From the IMG/VR virus record IMGVR_UViG_2671180357_000001, positions 1 through 30,616 of that record: DNA of 30,616 nt; one strand, written 5' to 3'. Under the pieces are notes generated by a model that worked only from the letters and a program-made list of their open reading frames with translations, was not told where the DNA came from and made no database searches. Every line of letters begins with the position of its first letter. Positions within the stretch are counted from its first letter, which is position 1. This DNA comes from a virus. Lineage: Duplodnaviria > Heunggongvirae > Uroviricota > Caudoviricetes. The position numbers and the translations under genes were made by a program. Shown one piece after another: positions 738-26,069 of this stretch.

Positions 738-2969
738 TTACTTCTGGTTATCATCACTGTTCATCCAGTACATGATGCCTAGCCTTGATATGGTTTTCTT
801 ATCTGATTCTGGAAGTGAGTTGTAAAACGGGCGCCAAGCAGAAGAGCGTCTTACAGTTGTATCAACGATGCTTTCTGGTGCTTGTTTTACTGCCAGCCTT
901 GCTGCTTTCTGGAATTCTGGTGAGCTAATTAGCTTTTCTGCAGATTCCATTGATGCAGCGCCGCCCATCGCCCTGATTTTGCTGGCGACTTTTGCCCCAA
1001 TTTCTGACCCAGCAACAGCACCTACTGCACTGAACGGTCCTGACACAGTTGAACCAACCGCAGTGCCAATGCGTTGGGAATGGTTAGCAACAAATTCATT
1101 TGCCGCAGTGACGCGATTAAACCGTTTGACGAACTCGTTTAGTCTTCCTGTAGTTATCTCGTAAGATTTTGCGTCTTTGATAGCCTTTGCGACCTTATAT
1201 ACATCGCTCAGACCTGACATAGTCTCTTTTGGTAAATGTCGGGCAAGATTGCGCATCTGCCCGTTTGCTAACATGTTTTGATACCAGTCAGCAAACCCTG
1301 CAGGATTAAAATCAGCGCCACGTTTTCCGTTCGAAAGCATATCCCGAAGACCTGTTCCCAGTAGCTCGGTTCTTAGCTTCCTGGACGGCGTGTTTTGCAT
1401 CAATTCACGAAATCCTTTGGCATCGCCTTTCGACATTGCCTGTAGTGCTGTAGTTGCTTTGCGAGAAACATCACCGTTCAGCGTTCTGCCAGTTAGATTA
1501 ATCATTTGCTCTTCCATGCTTTTTCGCATCTGAACAAGCCTCTGAGCAACTTCAAAATCACGTAATGCATTTGTCTCTGACAGCGCCGCCTTTTGATCAT
1601 CGGCGAGCGAACCGTAAAGCCTCGATAAAGCAGCGCGATCAGCATCTTTATATGGTCCAGAATTCTTATGAAGTGCATCACCAACAAGTCGTCGTTGCTT
1701 ATTGAGATTTGCATAAGTTAATGCGCCGTTCTTGCCTGGATTAACTGCCCGAAAGACTCTCTTTTCAATAGGGTCAAGGTTTTTCATCCCGCCAAGATCT
1801 TCTGCCACCTGTTTGAGCATTGACCTTGTTGATGGCGCATCAATTTTTGCACCTGCAGGCATCGCCTTTTCAACATTGCGATAAAGCTGGTCGCTTCGTT
1901 TCATCAGCGCAGACATTCTTCCATTGACCGTATCAATAAACTTGTCGCTCATACCAAGAGCATCTTTTGCACCGGAAACGCGATCAATTATCTCCCCCGC
2001 GCCCTGTGCTAGCTGCCTGATTGCTTCATTTTCCTGCACCTGTAGAGCAGAACCCGCACGGGACTTGATTGCTTGCTCAACTGCCTTGTATTGCTCGTTC
2101 CCGGAAAAGTGTGAAGGGAGTAATGAATCAACATTAAGCCTTTCAGCAGACTCCAGAACTTCAGCCTGAGGATTGATATCTAGTTCATCAAGTGATGAAG
2201 CGAGATTTGGCCTTTTTTGTGCTGCTACTGTGCGAACGACTTCCTCTGGGTTCCTCGTCGCAGGCGTCATTGGTACACCTTGTGCTACTCTTGCCTCTGC
2301 GGCATGAACCGCAGGATTTGTTGCTGCAGCGGCATCACCGGAGAATGGTGATGTTTCTGTTGGCGCAGTGGTCGCTCTCTGTGCAGATGTTTTATTGCCA
2401 CTAATTATATTTGATGCACCACGAACACCACGGGTAACGCCATTTATCAGGCCATGCGTAGCAATGTTAAGTCCGGCATTAATAGCGGCATTTTCGGCAA
2501 AATCACCCCGTTGATTCGCCGCGTCAGCGAGAGAACCAATGACCATGTTTCCAGCTACACCTGCTCCAGGAACAAGATAACCGCCTATTGACTCTCCAGC
2601 TTGCGCGTAGGGGTCTGTCGGTCTGTCTACTGGACGATAAACATCATCCAATACTTTTGGCCCCCCAAGCCCCTGACTGATTGCATTAATCAGACTTGCG
2701 CCACCCTGCAATACGTCAAATGGTATGTTTACCAGACCACGACCAGCCTGTTCTGCAATTTGCCCTGCACTTTGACCACCAGTGAGCCAATCGCCAGCTT
2801 GTTGCATCAATGATGGTTCTTCCCGTGTTGGTGCATTATTGGCCTGATTAACTGTTTGTTGCTGAACAGCCTGACCAGCAAAATACTCATCAATGGCGGT
2901 GCCAATATCTTCGGTGCTCGTACCATCAGGAAAGGTAAATGTCTTACCGTTTGCAGTTACTTTCATCAT
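738..2969 (-). CDS. Ejection/internal protein, P22 gp16-like
   Basis: Last gene of the gp7-gp20-gp16 order; N-terminus [15 protein letters not shown]; 743 aa with Ala/Gly-rich low-complexity stretches. Confidence 0.7.
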
Positions 2970-4432
2970 TCCACCGTAAATTGAATGCCTGATTTTGAGG
3001 TATATGATCCGGATTGACTCTGCTGCTGTTGGGTATTTGTCGGTTGTTGACTATTGCTCTGTTGTTGACTATTTGCAGCACTTGAAACCACCAAAGCATC
3101 ATAAACGCGACCAGACTGACCACGTAATGAGTTATATTGGCCCTGCATTTTTCGCATTTTTGTTTCAGTAGCAGCCTTGGAATCACCGGGCTGAGGCAGG
3201 TACATTTTGGAATACTCCTGCATCTCTGGCAGAGTAATTGCTGCACCTGTTTCTGGGCGCAAAATTGCATACAAGGCGTCTCTCGCATTTACCATATATT
3301 GCTGCTCCGCTGGTGATAGGCTTAAATTTGCAATAGTCCCATCACCAAGAGAGCGATTTATTAATGCAACTCGCTTAGGGTCAATGCTTTTACTAAGCTG
3401 ATTCATTGAGTCCATTGAATCTTTTAATCGCAAAGCAAATCCCGCCGCCTTCTTGGAACCCTCATTAGCCTTATCTATGATGCTTTGCGCTTGTGGCAAG
3501 CTAATTGGTTTAATGCCATCACCAGATATAGGTTGGTTTAGTTTTCCGGCTTCCTCGCTGCCATCGGTGTAATACTTAGTTACCGAGCCATCAGGATTGG
3601 TTTCAACCTTAAGTAATTTCTTAGCATTGGGATTAATTCCCGCCGCTGCCGCAAATGCCGCTGCACCATCTGGATCTACCTTTAACATTTGCGCGTACTG
3701 ATTGTAATTCTGCATTGCGGCTGTTGGTGCATATGCTGACGTTAACGCATTTGCTCGGCTAATATCCTGCCCTCTCGCCTGAAGTGCTTCACCAGCCTGA
3801 TTGCTGCGGATTGTCTCTGCCAGTCTGCCTCGGTCAATCTCACGACCAGCCATCTTGTCCTGAACATTGAAGTAATCAATCGGACCAAGAGCAGCCATCC
3901 CAAGGTGATCAACAAACTCACCAAATCCTGAAGGATTCTGCTGATACATCTGAGCAACGCTGTTAGGGTCAACACCGACGCGAGTCAGTTCCTTGGCGTT
4001 GTTTTGCAGCCATGATTGCATTGCTTCTGGAGACGATGACGCAAGGCGTGCGCCAGCCGCTAAGGTGCCGATAGAATTGCGCTGGTCTTCATCAATGAAT
4101 CCCATGCCTTTGCGAACAGATTCAATCTGGTCTGGATATTGAGTAGCCAACTGACGCAAAGCACCGCGATCACCAGACGCATAAGCATTAGCGTATGCCT
4201 GCTGAAATTCTTTCTGCCGCTGAGCCTGCTTTTCCTGCTTAAACACACCCGCAATACCTGAAAGGCCTTGCAAAGCAGTCAGCCCAACATTGTTAGCGCC
4301 TGAACGCTCAATATCATTGTTCTGCCTGATAAGCTGAAGCGTATTGCCGATGTCATTTACGCTAGGAGCGTTTGAGTTGACGCCACCGATACCAGCCAAC
4401 AATCCGCCATTTGTTCCTTTCCAAGTAGCCAT
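2966..4432 (-). CDS. Ejection protein, P22 gp20-like
   Basis: Position between gp7-like and gp16-like genes; 488 aa, Gln/Ala-rich; stop overlaps the next start. Confidence 0.7.
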
Positions 4433-5595: not shown

Positions 5596-6296
5596 CAGTC
5601 AATCAACCCATGAGTCCGTAATGCATCTTCCAGAGCTTTGATACGCTGCCGCGCCTGCTGCAATCCTGTAGCCATAGCCGACACCTCAGACCGTGTGTAT
5701 GTGGCACTTACCGTGTATGTCTGGTTAGCGTTGAATGAGCCGCGAAGATCCGTACCTGTAGCCGCTGTCCACCCTGTCTGACGAGCACCAATAACCTTGG
5801 TGCCGCCGACCGAATAGGATGTTGTTACATTGAGGGGAGATGCCAGCGATTGTGTTGCAGTGGCTGTTTTCGATACATAGTCGTCCTGTAATGCAGAAAT
5901 GTTGCTCTCAGCAGTCGTAACCCGGCCATCAAGAGCGCTGACGTCAGCCTGTAAGGTGACTATTTCTCCTTCAGCCGTGGTTAGTCTGACATCCAGCGCT
6001 GCAATTGCCGCAGTATTCGCAGCAATACGGATTTCATGGTCATCTACTTCAATGCGGAGCTGACGAATTCTTTCTTCGTGATCGACCAGAATCACATCCT
6101 GCTCATCGTTCCTGACTTGTGCGTCATAAGCGCCCTGTCCGGCCTCGTTGGCCTTGTTAGCCACGTTACCAACATCAGTGCCCTGTGCGATAACGTAAAG
6201 CAGATACGACTGCGAGAAGATATTGCGTGGAAGGACTGATGTGTCGAGCCGTGTAGCCTGAATGATTACCGGCACATTGAGATTCGAATCAGCCAT
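5595..6296 (-). CDS. Tail needle protein, P22 gp26-like
   Basis: 233 aa; N-terminus [43 protein letters not shown] and C-terminal ALRTHGLID match recalled P22 gp26; heptad coiled-coil core. Confidence 0.85.
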
Positions 6297-7714
6297 TACT
6301 CAATCCTTATCTGGCAGCCTGACAGAGTGACAGGTGACTTCGTGATAACGCGCAATTTGAAACCGACATTTTTCCTGATGCGCCCTACTCGCTTCCACAA
6401 AACGCGTTTGTCGTAAACGAACGGTTCATTCTGCTCAATCATCTGCTCACGTCCGTAATTGATGCCGTCAGTGGTTGCAGAGAGGAACAGGCGGTCGGCG
6501 TACTGCGCAACGCCAGTTGACGATTCAACCTCAAGATCAAAGCATCTGGCATTATCTGCTTTGAACAACGGAGTAAACAGCAGGTGTTCCTGTTGAAGAC
6601 CATACTGGCTGCTGATGTCGAATTGCAATTTCCCGGTCACGGGTTCCAGTTTATCGCCGCACGTTATCTGATTGCCTTCGTAAATGAAGTCGATAGCGCG
6701 GTACACATCGTCATACAGGCCTGTTTTCAGCACACACCATTGCGGACCATTGGCGCTTGAAGATGCGTCGTACACGAGAACATGGCGCGGAAGGTGGATA
6801 ATCAGCAATTCATGAGCATCAAACCGCAACGATTCCATCACGCCATCAGCCAGTTCATCAGCAGTGTAGGAGCGTAGTATTTTCTCAATGCTCGCGCTGG
6901 CGATTGGTGATACCTGACCGGAACCGATGATGTACACAGACGGCGCACCTGTTGCCGGATTGCTGATGAACGCATAAGAATCAGCAAACGGCGTTTTGCA
7001 GTAAGTTCCGGCGATGCCTTTTTGCACCATCAGCGATGGCTGTGCGACATATAAAGCGGCACCAACAGTGGTTGCGCCAGTCAGGGAGAAATATTCAATC
7101 GTCGATGAACCAAAGCAGACGATGAAGTCTCGCCATGTACCTATGCCGATGATTCCGTCAGGCTGAGACTCGGCACGATATTGTGCACTGTAGCGGTCAG
7201 GATGCGATTCGTCTTCAAGGTCAGTGATAAACCATGAATCAGTGCCGTCTTTTGACCACGCATAACGCCCACGTAAGCGCGTAATGTCGCGGACTGAGCC
7301 TAACTCATACTGCGTGAATCCGCTGTCTGTAGGCCAGTTTGAGACGGTTTTAACCGTGCCATCATAGCGATACTCGACCAGTTGACCGTTAACGCCTACC
7401 GCCTGTGATGTCCGACCATGCGCCATTGATACGCGACCACTTCCGGCAACGTCACCGACTTCACTTTCTCCTTTGTACAGCTTGCCACCACACACACGAT
7501 AAACAGCATTCTGCGCCATGTTGTACTCGACGCCGCGAGATACACCGTTCACATCAGAGCGTTTGGCAATGCCCGGGAATGAACGAAGATATCCGCTGCT
7601 GTTGAGTATTTCTTTGGGTGTAGCCAACATATTCACTGGCAGATAGTCGATATAGTCAGCGTTTCTAAAGTCTTTGCCGACACCTTTCATAAGCGGAAGT
7701 TGCTGAATCGGCAT
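6296..7714 (-). CDS. Tail hub protein, P22 gp10-like
   Basis: 472 aa (same length as recalled P22 gp10), between gp4-like and gp26-like genes. Confidence 0.75.
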
Positions 7715-7723
7715 TTATTCACC

Positions 7724-8185
7724 TCACGTACTCGGATCATCTTTCTCGATGTAAAACCGATTCCACGTAAACGCGCTTTTGTTACCACTACCGCGAGGCA
7801 TGTCATTTCGCCGCTCAAGTGGTGGTATTTTGGTTAAAGCGATGCAGATTGTCTGATATGCACTGTCGGCAGCGGTAAGGAGAGCGTCTGACGGCTGAAT
7901 GACGTTATCCATGCACACTTGCACAGCGAGTTTCAAAGCGACGCCATCATTTGCCCATGCAGGGATGCCTGAATCATCGTCAGGTAACGGCATGATGCCG
8001 TTTTCTGTATCAGCAAACTGATACCCAAGCTCGATACCTTTCGCCTGCCATGCTGCCATCATGTCTTCGAGGTCATTAATGGCATCTTCAATTGCCTGAG
8101 GGTCAGCATCTGTCAACGTGGCATTGGAATACAGCCCGGCTTTTCGTAAAGCCTTAAGAACGAGATCACCCTTCGTTTTCGCCAT
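7724..8185 (-). CDS. Tail accessory/head-completion protein, P22 gp4-like
   Basis: N-terminus MAKTKGDLVLKALRKAGL resembles recalled P22 gp4; position after coat gene. Confidence 0.7.
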   Translation of the reverse strand: MAKTKGDLVLKALRKAGLYSNATLTDADPQAIEDAINDLEDMMAAWQAKGIELGYQFADTENGIMPLPDDDSGIPAWANDGVALKLAVQVCMDNVIQPSDALLTAADSAYQTICIALTKIPPLERRNDMPRGSGNKSAFTWNRFYIEKDDPST

Positions 8186-8354
8186 CTTCTTCCGCCTTAG
8201 CCACTTTTTGCTTCGTTGCGGTTTCTTCAGGAGTTTTTACCCAACCTTTTTTCAGGTGAGATTTAACTTCTTCGTCATCAACAATGACGTAATCGACAGC
8301 AAACTGACCACAGGTGATCATGTTGCCAGGCTTATAGAGCATTGTTCGTGCCAT
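8166..8354 (-). CDS. Small hypothetical protein (62 aa) between coat and gp4-like genes
   Basis: ORF 8166..8393 trimmed to Met14 (MARTMLYKPGN...); GGGAGA 5 nt upstream; sits just downstream of the coat terminator. Acidic C-terminus. Confidence 0.45.
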   Translation of the reverse strand: MARTMLYKPGNMITCGQFAVDYVIVDDEEVKSHLKKGWVKTPEETATKQKVAKAEEDGENEG

Positions 8355-8365
8355 TGTCTTCTCCC

Positions 8366-8391
8366 AATAAAAATGGGGCCGAAGCCCCACC
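8366..8391 (-). terminator. Rho-independent terminator immediately after the coat gene
   Basis: Minus-strand GGGGC-UUCG-GCCCC hairpin followed by AUUUUUAUU, read directly from the sequence. Confidence 0.6.
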
Positions 8392-8395
8392 AAAA

Positions 8396-9649
8396 TTACT
8401 GCCCGGCAATAACGATGCCCGTATATTCAGGAACAAGTACAGAGCAACCGTACAGAGTGGTGAAACGAGCAGTGGTTACGCCTTTGATGTGGTCGAAGGC
8501 GTAAGACATGATCAGCGTAGCGCCCTGCTCGGTGGTTGCTGTCATTACCTGTGGACCCTGACCAGTTGGGAACGCCAGCTTGCCGTACATCAGTTCAACA
8601 GAACCATCAGCCCAGAACAGGTTAGCCGGTGCGGCATTTTTGTTGAGAATGGTGATTGCTGCGCTACTTGCCGCATTAGCATCAACGTTTGCATATGGTC
8701 GGCTGGCGACATCCGCGTTGTCAGGCGGCAGAATTTTCGGGGAGATAGTTACTGTCGTTCCGCTTACTGCCAGAACGCGGAATACCTGCGGCTGCCCGGT
8801 GGTATCTTTGGTGATCTGGTGTACAGAATTCACCCCTGCGATGGTAAACGCATCGCCAACCTGCAAACCTTCAGCAGATACCGTAATGGTCCCCTGCCGG
8901 TTATCCACTGGCATATCGTTAGCATCTTTCGCTTCAACCTTGTGCGCAGGTGCTGCTGCCAGCGTAATGGAAGTTGCTGTACCCTTCGGAACACGACCAG
9001 AAATATCGGTCTTGTAGCTATCGAAGGACGCAACCGGAGGGATCTGCGCTTTTTCGTATGCTGTCAGGGTTGCGCCCTGAGCATAGGCACGGTGACCAAG
9101 CTCGCCAGCAAGGTCTTTATAGTTGAATGGGTTCCAGAAAGAGCGGCGGTTGATACCCTGTGGTACACCAATCGCCGTCATGGTGGCATCAATACCTGCC
9201 GCACAGTTCCACAAATCACGGCCCTGTGAACCAGTGTTTGAGTCAGCCATTGTTATCACGTTAGTAGCACGCTGCGTGACCATGGAAATCAGGTCAGAGT
9301 CAATCTGTGCAGCAAGGCGCATACCTGCGGCGCGACCAGCTTCAGTTTTATGTTCCGGGTCACGCATTTCACGCGCATCCAGAGTGTACAGAATGTTTTT
9401 CGGCTCCTTGAACACTGAAGGAACAAGGCGCTGAACCAGTGCTGTTGGCGTTTTGCTGCTGAGATCGAGTCCTTCCTCAATGTTCATGTGGTAATGCTGC
9501 GGACGATACAGAACATCACCTGCTCGCTGCATTGCTGTATCACCGGGACGGAATTTTTTAGCGTTACGGGAAACTACGCAGGCGGCCTCAAAGCCTTCAA
9601 CGTAGTTTTCGAACATGATTTCAAGGTCTTTTGCTAATTGGTTAGCCAT
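8396..9649 (-). CDS. Major capsid (coat) protein, P22 gp5-like
   Basis: 417 aa after the scaffold gene; motifs such as NLFWADGSVEL resemble recalled P22-family coat proteins. Confidence 0.8.
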   Translation of the reverse strand: MANQLAKDLEIMFENYVEGFEAACVVSRNAKKFRPGDTAMQRAGDVLYRPQHYHMNIEEGLDLSSKTPTALVQRLVPSVFKEPKNILYTLDAREMRDPEHKTEAGRAAGMRLAAQIDSDLISMVTQRATNVITMADSNTGSQGRDLWNCAAGIDATMTAIGVPQGINRRSFWNPFNYKDLAGELGHRAYAQGATLTAYEKAQIPPVASFDSYKTDISGRVPKGTATSITLAAAPAHKVEAKDANDMPVDNRQGTITVSAEGLQVGDAFTIAGVNSVHQITKDTTGQPQVFRVLAVSGTTVTISPKILPPDNADVASRPYANVDANAASSAAITILNKNAAPANLFWADGSVELMYGKLAFPTGQGPQVMTATTEQGATLIMSYAFDHIKGVTTARFTTLYGCSVLVPEYTGIVIAGQ

Positions 9650-26009: not shown

Positions 26010-26041
26010 CAGCCTCACCACTCTAAAACACACAACAATAA

Positions 26042-26069
26042 CCCGACCTTAGCGTCGGGTTTTCTTTTT
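26042..26069 (+). terminator. Rho-independent terminator after cI
   Basis: CCCGAC-CTTAGC-GTCGGG hairpin followed by TTTTCTTTTT. Confidence 0.6.

Follow-up and report, generated by a model that had tools for sequence, protein, structure and literature searches.

A terminator-type hairpin and an orf69-like small gene at the coat–adaptor junction of a CUS-3-type P22-like phage

What do a terminator-type hairpin and a very short open reading frame (ORF) do between the coat gene and the gp4-type adaptor gene of a tailed phage? The question is raised by a viral DNA of 30,616 nucleotides (IMG/VR record IMGVR_UViG_2671180357_000001; this whole stretch is referred to as the window). In a first-pass annotation made from its sequence alone, a GC-rich hairpin with a U-tract was described directly behind the coat stop codon, followed by a 62-aa ORF with its own ribosome-binding site, an acidic tail and no assigned function, and the hairpin was proposed to set the stoichiometry of coat versus downstream gene products. 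The 2-kb stretch around this junction has 94-99% nucleotide identity to the Escherichia phages Kapi1, Huey and JEP4, Shigella phage Sf101 and CUS-3, and the gene order of Kapi1, Sf101 and CUS-3 is identical to that of the window. By these sequence comparisons, the window is a CUS-3/Kapi1/Sf101-type P22-like phage of the genus Lederbergvirus. The coat gene, the small ORF, the gp4-type adaptor gene and the gene for a Q-type antiterminator are all on the minus strand (Table 1). Both the hairpin and the small ORF are already known, being long-annotated standard features of P22-like phages, and the junction is the standard place in the late operon of such phages where the procapsid genes (portal, scaffold, coat) give way to those for head completion (gp4, gp10, gp26).

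Table 1. Features of the coat–adaptor junction and of the head of the late operon (positions in the window)
Feature	Coordinates	Strand	Evidence and details
gp4-type head-tail adaptor gene (P22_Tail-4 / Ad3)	7724..8185	-	PF11650 E 7e-41; phrog_637 'head-tail adaptor Ad3' E 5.7e-70; ATG at 8185
62-codon gene, orf69-like (phrog_1175)	8166..8354	-	ATG 8354; stop TGA 8168..8166
Shine-Dalgarno GGGAG (GGAGG-like)	8361..8365	-	6-nt spacer to the ATG of the small ORF
U-rich tract AUUUUUAUU	8366..8374	-	recognised as a U-rich tail in both terminator scans
Intrinsic-terminator-type hairpin GGUGGGGC-UUCG-GCCCCAUU	8372..8391	-	starts 4 nt (four U) past the coat stop
Coat (major capsid) gene, CUS-3 sequence type, 417 aa	8396..9649	-	PF11651 P22_CoatProtein E 4.9e-75; phrog_283 E 2.2e-121; stop TAA 8398..8396
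Terminator-like hairpin with U-run	17543..17560	-	follows Q at ~340 nt and closely precedes the holin gene
Q-type late antiterminator gene	17900..18388	-	PF06530 Phage_antitermQ E 1.3e-24; head of late operon

The coat gene, whose counterparts in Kapi1, Sf101 and CUS-3 are annotated as coat or major capsid protein, is followed on its own strand by the hairpin with its U-tract, as described in the first-pass annotation. The stem consists of 8 pairs (5 G-C, 1 U-A and 2 G-U), is closed by a UUCG tetraloop and is followed by UUUAUU. The first three bases of the U-rich tract belong to the foot of the stem, and the 3' end of the tract abuts the ribosome-binding site of the small ORF. The element possesses the sequence features of an intrinsic terminator, namely a G+C-rich stem, a short loop and a 3' U-tract. 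A bidirectional terminator was considered and rejected; read on the plus strand, the stem leads into AAAATTAC and not into a T-run. A sub-threshold Rfam match to MicA on the other strand (positions 7600-9000 were scanned) was taken as chance.

Folded in isolation, the hairpin has a predicted energy of -13.6 kcal/mol, compared with -7.1 +/- 2.4 kcal/mol for dinucleotide shuffles (z = -2.7; 1 of 200 was as good), and the fold of the 71-nt context is uninformative (z = -1.1). A strict terminator scan of the whole window, with minima of 7 pairs, 5 G-C pairs and 5 T among the 8 bases that follow the stem, yielded 10 sites, against 1.1 +/- 1.0 in 30 dinucleotide shuffles. Only two of these sites are situated within the late operon: the coat hairpin and a second one at 16177..16157, after the Rz gene.

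The small ORF is indeed situated between the coat gene and the gp4-like gene. Its 62-aa product, MARTMLYKPGNMITCGQFAVDYVIVDDEEVKSHLKKGWVKTPEETATKQKVAKAEEDGENEG (MARTMLYKPG...EEDGENEG), has 12 acidic and 9 basic residues, and the acidic tail and the separate ribosome-binding site are as first described. An alternative 75-aa reading from a TTG at 8393 starts within the foot of the hairpin; this is the form annotated in Kapi1, and the copy in E212 is unannotated. Because all homologues start at the M-x-x-x-MLYK position, the ATG start of the 62-aa form is regarded as correct. Compared with a diverged Escherichia coli prophage (L017), codons 1-26 show a pN of 0.19 and a pS of 0.74 (pN/pS ~0.26; corrected dN/dS 0.08). 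For codons 1-45 compared with a Serratia prophage, pN is 0.32 and pS is 0.65 (pN/pS ~0.49; corrected dN/dS 0.28). Judged by these substitution patterns, the small ORF is a genuine protein-coding gene under purifying selection. A 128-aa ORF on the plus strand (8118..8504) is antisense to two conserved genes and, being without support, was rejected as a gene. The small gene does not have the organization of a moron either: the minus strand showed no promoter-like site from the coat gene to the ORF, the terminator is situated upstream of the gene, not downstream, and the gene is present in all lineages examined.

The junction is explained by comparison with P22, Sf6 and CUS-3, the phages that the first-pass annotation had named for this purpose. 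In the closest relatives (ECRS218_0017 of CUS-3 and the copies in Kapi1, Sf101, JEP4 and Huey, among others) the small gene is the same, with essentially no difference; the window protein matches CUS-3 ABQ88397 at 100% identity and most other close relatives at 98%. The hairpin and the spacer behind it are identical to those of the window in Kapi1, Sf101 and CUS-3, the three phages compared. P22 (P22-pbi, GenBank AF527608) has the same order of coat gene, annotated 'RNA stem-loop', orf69 and overlapping gene 4, although its coat protein is of a different sequence type (29% identity to that of the window). The P22 hairpin reads CAGGGGC-UGCG-GCCCCU and is followed by a U-rich stretch. The P22 orf69 protein (69 aa) and the 62-aa window protein share the motif MLYKPG...G...VID...GW and belong to the same family, phrog_1175, although their global identity is only ~23% and their tails differ: the tail of orf69 is basic (KPRKGRKPK), whereas this motif is deleted in the window protein and the tail is acidic.

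In Sf6 (GenBank AF547987), a stem-loop after the coat stop is annotated as the likely transcription terminator 't coat', and gene 6, a 61-aa ORF, overlaps the gp4 homologue gene 7 by 26 nt. HKbT of HK620 and an unannotated ORF of APSE-1 have the same position and layout as Sf6 gene 6. The hhalign comparison of Sf6/APSE gp6 (phrog_3251) with the orf69 family was not significant (E 0.098, probability 0.6%), and by sequence the Sf6/APSE counterparts are positional analogues only. A longer form of the gene occupies the same position in epsilon34 (gene 6), phage L (orf186) and ST104 (ORF54), grouped as phrog_3769. It shares the N-terminal domain (MGVMLYKQG...DGW) and the C-terminal end, which overlaps gene 4, and behind the coat gene these phages have the same hairpin. 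The epsilon34/L-type protein is 186 aa long and contains a WDGH domain insertion (PF25311, E 1.7e-40), which is absent from the window protein. The P22 gene has been described as an internal deletion of the longer epsilon34-type form and is dispensable in the laboratory (PMC2629481).

Profile comparison places the window protein in phrog_1175 over residues 2-56 (E 2.7e-28), as it does P22 orf69 (E 4.5e-31). A profile search of 1.84 billion cluster representatives (clustered at 50% identity) revealed at least 123 relatives at E <= 0.001, and tblastn with the family consensus added no further phage records. Pooling both protein searches gives a set of family sequences with a median length of 70 aa. 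In the members, a conserved N-terminal domain of ~45 aa (MLYKxG...DYxIVD...GW..P.E) precedes a charged tail that varies strongly. In both alignments (43-45 members), G37 and W38 are invariant, and M5, L6, Y7 and G10 reach at least 90% conservation; for D21 and V25 this holds only in the 43-member alignment. All of these core residues are present in the window protein. The AlphaFold2 model of the 62 aa (mean pLDDT 80.9, about 90 over residues 1-40) comprises a beta-hairpin at residues 3-26, a helix at 27-35, a G-W turn and a less confident tail helix at 42-57. The small protein would thus consist of a beta-beta-alpha domain with a variable charged tail.

The first-pass statement that the ORF has no assigned function agrees with the Pfam and NCBIfam scans of the 62-aa protein, which matched no family. 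A PDB sequence search with the family profile gave noise only (E >= 0.04). When the AlphaFold2 model was submitted to Foldseek, no PDB entry scored below E 2.5, and the BFVD matches were uncharacterised phage proteins only. Among longer family members, Pfam detected WDGH in epsilon34 gp6 and a sub-threshold Rho_N match (E 0.0015), and nothing else. AT-hook-like basic tail motifs (KKPGRKPK, RGRP) are carried by 19 of the 145 family sequences, and P22 orf69 has one as well. The tail of the window protein (...TATKQKVAKAEEDGENEG) lacks the basic motif and is not of the AT-hook type; if anything, the window protein is a minimal form of the family without this motif.

Synteny with the adaptor gene is the strongest regularity of the orf69-like family. 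The window adaptor, which matches the solved chains of Sf6 gp7 and P22 gp4, has its start codon inside the small ORF, with a 20-nt overlap. The neighbour was identifiable in eight lineages, and in seven of them the small ORF is located immediately upstream of a P22_Tail-4/Ad3 gene; the short contig L012, whose neighbour is not identifiable, was left out of this count. The adaptor-adjacent lineages are the window, the E. coli prophage L017, P22, Serratia, Ralstonia phage RSK1 and the assembly or metagenome contigs L010, L011 and L013/L014. In L015, one 142-aa ORF separates the small gene from the adaptor gene. At the junctions of small ORF and adaptor gene there is either an overlap of 10-29 nt or a gap of at most 6 nt. 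Because the small ORF overlaps the gp4 start, translational coupling is suggested. The small ORF would be translated from its own GGGAG right after the hairpin, so that translation restarts past the structured spacer, and ribosomes that finish it may be passed to gp4 via the overlap.

This arrangement could also mean that the small ORF is only a leader that loads ribosomes after the hairpin for the benefit of gp4, its peptide being functionless. The gp4 overlap, the tight spacing to the next gene in the lineages examined and the dispensability of the gene in P22 would all fit such a leader. However, the amino acid sequence is under purifying selection, the domain is recognisable in 123 diverged cluster representatives, and the fold is confidently predicted over its first 40 residues (pLDDT about 90), and a mere leader is therefore very unlikely. 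A conserved, well-folding domain implies that the peptide itself is selected.

That the 62-aa protein forms part of the virion structure is likewise improbable, if slightly less so. Such a role is suggested by the RefSeq product name of Sf101 gp06, 'virion structural protein', and by the position of the gene among structural genes. No support for this product name was found: the remaining records say hypothetical, and the Sf101 paper contains no proteomics. Although virion structures of P22 and Sf6 that include gp4 and gp7 have been deposited, neither the family profile, which covers P22 orf69, nor Sf6 gp6 has a match among the PDB chains. In phage L, virion proteomics detected 22 phage proteins; the text gives the names of 13, with orf186 absent from them, and does not list all of the other nine. 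The small gene is not mentioned in the Sf101, Kapi1, PhiGT1 and Sf6 cryo-EM papers.

A role in head completion is the best guess for the small protein because of its fixed partnership with the adaptor gene, and it is probably a dispensable accessory factor in this process. A bolder version, which we regard as rather doubtful, is that the orf69-like proteins are an unrecognised ancient accessory factor of P22-type head completion, acting as a chaperone or timing factor for gp4 or contacting the last-packaged DNA end. If the chaperone or timing version were true, gp4 would be kept monomeric until it docks on the DNA-filled portal. The fixed position and the coupling to gp4, which extend to Ralstonia phage RSK1 and to uncultured metagenome phages, would then reflect a functional partnership and not mere gene order.

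The hairpin has a distribution of its own. It is found where the coat gene or coat block ends in 12 lineages (the window, the E. coli and Serratia prophages L017 and L009, P22, epsilon34, Sf6, APSE-1, phiSG1, RSK1, and the contigs L010, L011 and L013), whose coat proteins are as little as 29% identical. A GGGGC/GCCCC core is common to most of the enterobacterial hairpins. The stems of RSK1 (GCCGCCC/GGGCGGC), L011 (GGAGCC/GGCUCC), APSE-1 (GGGCGC/GUGCCC) and L010 differ and still pair. Across ten lineages, 90% of the alignment cells are paired and 6 of 8 pairs are changed on both sides, a covariation count that is biased towards structure by the manual registration of the alignment on the loop. 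Half of the hairpins (6/12) have the UUCG tetraloop, and a good U-tract is missing from three (phiSG1, L010 and L013). In RSK1 and L010 an extra ORF lies between the coat gene and the hairpin; in L011 the hairpin directly follows the coat gene, two genes upstream of the small ORF. By this placement, the hairpin goes with the end of the coat block and not with the small ORF. PHROG scans gave no function for the extra ORFs between the coat gene and the small ORF in RSK1, L010 and L011, and provided no support for decoration proteins.

The transcriptional context of the junction is that of a lambdoid late operon. The gene for a Q-type antiterminator is situated at its head, followed by a hairpin with a U-run that occupies the position of lambda tR'. 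The genes for holin, lysozyme, Rz, a Rha-family protein, the small and large terminase subunits, portal, scaffold and coat follow in this order on the same strand. By gene content (Q, terminator-like hairpin, lysis and morphogenesis genes), this is a Q-antiterminated operon, in which late transcription would begin downstream of Q and has to run on into the essential genes behind the coat hairpin. A scan of the minus strand between the coat hairpin and the head-completion and ejection genes found no promoter-like site. Because the operon is headed by Q, the genes downstream are essential and no promoter-like site lies past the hairpin, any termination at the hairpin is expected to be only partial. 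Polymerase modified by a lambda-type Q is largely resistant to terminators, and a small effect on transcription itself is favoured for this reason.

On this evidence, we hold it to be moderately probable that the hairpin is a leaky terminator and/or a 3' stabiliser of RNA in the Q-antiterminated operon, and that the ORF is a non-essential accessory gene coupled to gp4. The hairpin would end a fraction of the transcripts and/or shield the 3' end of processed coat mRNA from exonucleases. Coat RNA would thereby outnumber or outlast the RNA for the low-copy head-completion proteins. The P22 virion contains ~415 coat subunits and 12 copies of gp4, which makes a role in dosage attractive. The proposal of the first-pass annotation, that the hairpin sets the stoichiometry of coat versus downstream products, is reasonable, and the idea is already published; a role in stabilising the RNA 3' end or in insulation is equally possible. 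For phage L, the same predicted terminator has been noted at the end of the procapsid module, with partial termination or a block of non-antiterminated transcripts proposed as its function (PMC8022706). In the searchable literature, no transcript 3'-end, RNA-seq, reporter or proteomic data on the junction, and no measurements on such stem-loops in P22-like phages, were found.

The action of the hairpin could also be purely post-transcriptional: it would block 3'-to-5' exonucleases after mRNA cleavage and so prolong the life of the portal-scaffold-coat segment, with no termination of Q-modified polymerase. The Q gene at the head of the operon and the essential downstream genes without a promoter-like site of their own are in line with this, as is the very stable UUCG loop in the lineages that possess it. 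The hairpins of phiSG1, L010 and L013, which keep the stem without the U-tract, fit an RNA-stability element better than a terminator. However, a canonical U-tract is kept in most counterparts, including the window, and a pure stability element needs none; a solely post-transcriptional hairpin is possible and clearly less probable than the combined role.

A further proposal is that the hairpin mainly insulates the head-completion, ejection and tail genes from stray polymerase not modified by Q, originating for example in a lysogen or from weak internal promoters. This is one of the two possibilities proposed in PMC8022706, and the strong hairpins of the late operon are indeed situated at module boundaries (after Q, Rz and coat). 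However, low-level expression of gp4 or gp10 has no obvious cost, and dosage accounts better for a hairpin placed exactly behind the most abundant structural gene in phages that differ widely, so that insulation is unlikely to be the main function. In the leaky-terminator and/or stabiliser reading that we prefer, the hairpin would also halt polymerase unmodified by Q, and insulation would be a side benefit.

For annotation, the ATG at 8354 (62 aa) should be taken as the start of the ORF in place of the TTG within the hairpin, the product should be named as a member of the orf69 / phrog_1175 family, and the hairpin should be marked as an Sf6-type 't coat' element. Two wider questions are touched by this junction, neither of them new. 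One is how hairpins within Q-antiterminated late operons affect expression, and the other is what role is played by a small protein that is kept beside the gp4-type adaptor in very distant podoviruses, yet is dispensable in P22. The window gives no special handle on either question.

The arrangement has parallels outside the P22-like phages, where intra-operon stem-loop terminators follow major capsid genes: T-phi after gene 10 of T7 and the stem-loops after the head genes of HK97 and HK022 are of this kind. Such strong capsid-gene hairpins are situated directly after the most-needed structural gene and are read through for lower expression of the genes downstream. T7 employs its own RNA polymerase and a class I terminator, whereas the window phage uses the host polymerase, presumably modified by a lambda-type Q.

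Comparison of the window with an E. coli prophage locus (L017) places a mosaic (recombination) junction within the small orf69-like ORF that lies between the coat gene and gp4, the head-tail adaptor gene. The two scaffold proteins are 97% identical, whereas the coat proteins share only 67% identity. Codons 1-26 of the small ORF have also diverged (pS 0.74), whereas from codon 27 on, through gp4 and gp10, protein identity is 99%. A single patch, made up of the coat gene, the hairpin that follows it and the small ORF's N-terminal half, has been exchanged.

A further mosaic break is the sharp gp4/gp10 boundary. The gp10 homologue (7714..6296) has 93% identity to P22 gp10, and the neighboring gp4 has only 40% identity to its P22 counterpart. 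The gp4 and gp10 proteins are in mutual contact within the tail.

Features located in the window and in related genomes
Feature	Sequence	Position	Strand	Context
Mosaic (recombination) junction	window	8280-8300	minus	within small ORF
Sharp mosaic boundary gp4/gp10	window	7714-7724		protein identities to P22
Strong hairpin with U-run	window	16157-16177	minus	directly 3' of Rz lysis gene
Strong hairpin with U-run	window	17543-17560	minus	about 340 nt downstream of Q gene, just before holin gene
Hairpin AACCCGAC...GTCGGGTT	window	26040-26061	both	T-runs on either side
ORF5	Ralstonia phage RSK1 (L004)	2725-3432		between coat gene and orf69-like gene
Extra ORF	contig L010	1161-1766		between coat gene and orf69-like gene
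Extra ORFs	contig L011	2486-3635		between coat gene and orf69-like gene
Gene 6 (small-ORF homologue)	epsilon34 (L016)	948-1508		

Annotation of the coat/small-ORF/gp4 junction is inconsistent across public records. The small ORF is called in Kapi1 (MT813197) as a 75-aa product whose TTG start codon lies within the hairpin, is left without annotation in E212 (MZ043897), and is designated 'virion structural protein' in the RefSeq entry of Sf101 (NC_027398). In EC.P3 (PQ657771) gp4 is labelled 'peptidoglycan hydrolase', and in phiv205-1 (MN340231) the coat gene is apparently named 'terminase small subunit'.

The late-operon hairpins after Q (the late antiterminator gene), after Rz and after the coat gene are all three situated at module boundaries, and the one following Q resembles lambda tR' in its location. 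The early-region hairpin obtained a terminator score in both directions in a strict scan for hairpins with T-runs. Its probable role is that of a bidirectional terminator separating convergent genes. No tRNA genes were found by ARAGORN in the window (1-30616), and its Q-to-holin spacer (17900..17548) contains only hairpins; in the close relative Kapi1, two tRNAs immediately ahead of the lysis module have been reported (Kapi1 paper). An Rfam match to the MicA sRNA at 7767-7831 on the plus strand, which overlaps the gp4 3' end in antisense orientation, scores below threshold (23.2 bits against a gathering score of 41, E 0.74) and was taken as a chance hit.

In some distant phages with a P22-type module, the coat gene is separated from the orf69-like gene by one or two additional ORFs, of 201-304 aa and of 76 aa. 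PHROG searches with these matched families of unknown function or gave no match; decoration proteins could be a candidate role.

The C-terminal tail is extremely variable in the small-ORF family (proteins P0046-P0160). AT-hook-like KKPGRKPK or RGRP motifs are found in 19 of 145 family sequences, other tails contain lysine-rich runs or acidic coiled-coil-like inserts that reach 184 aa, and a small number end in a helix-extension-helix or Rho_N-like segment (one weak Pfam match, E 0.0015). These tail motifs hint that some members, the window's version excepted, may bind nucleic acids. The homologue in epsilon34 and phage L (orf186) differs in being 186 aa long: a WDGH domain (PF25311, E 1.7e-40), for which no function was found in the searchable literature, is inserted between the conserved N-terminal domain and a C-terminal KKPGPKPK tail.
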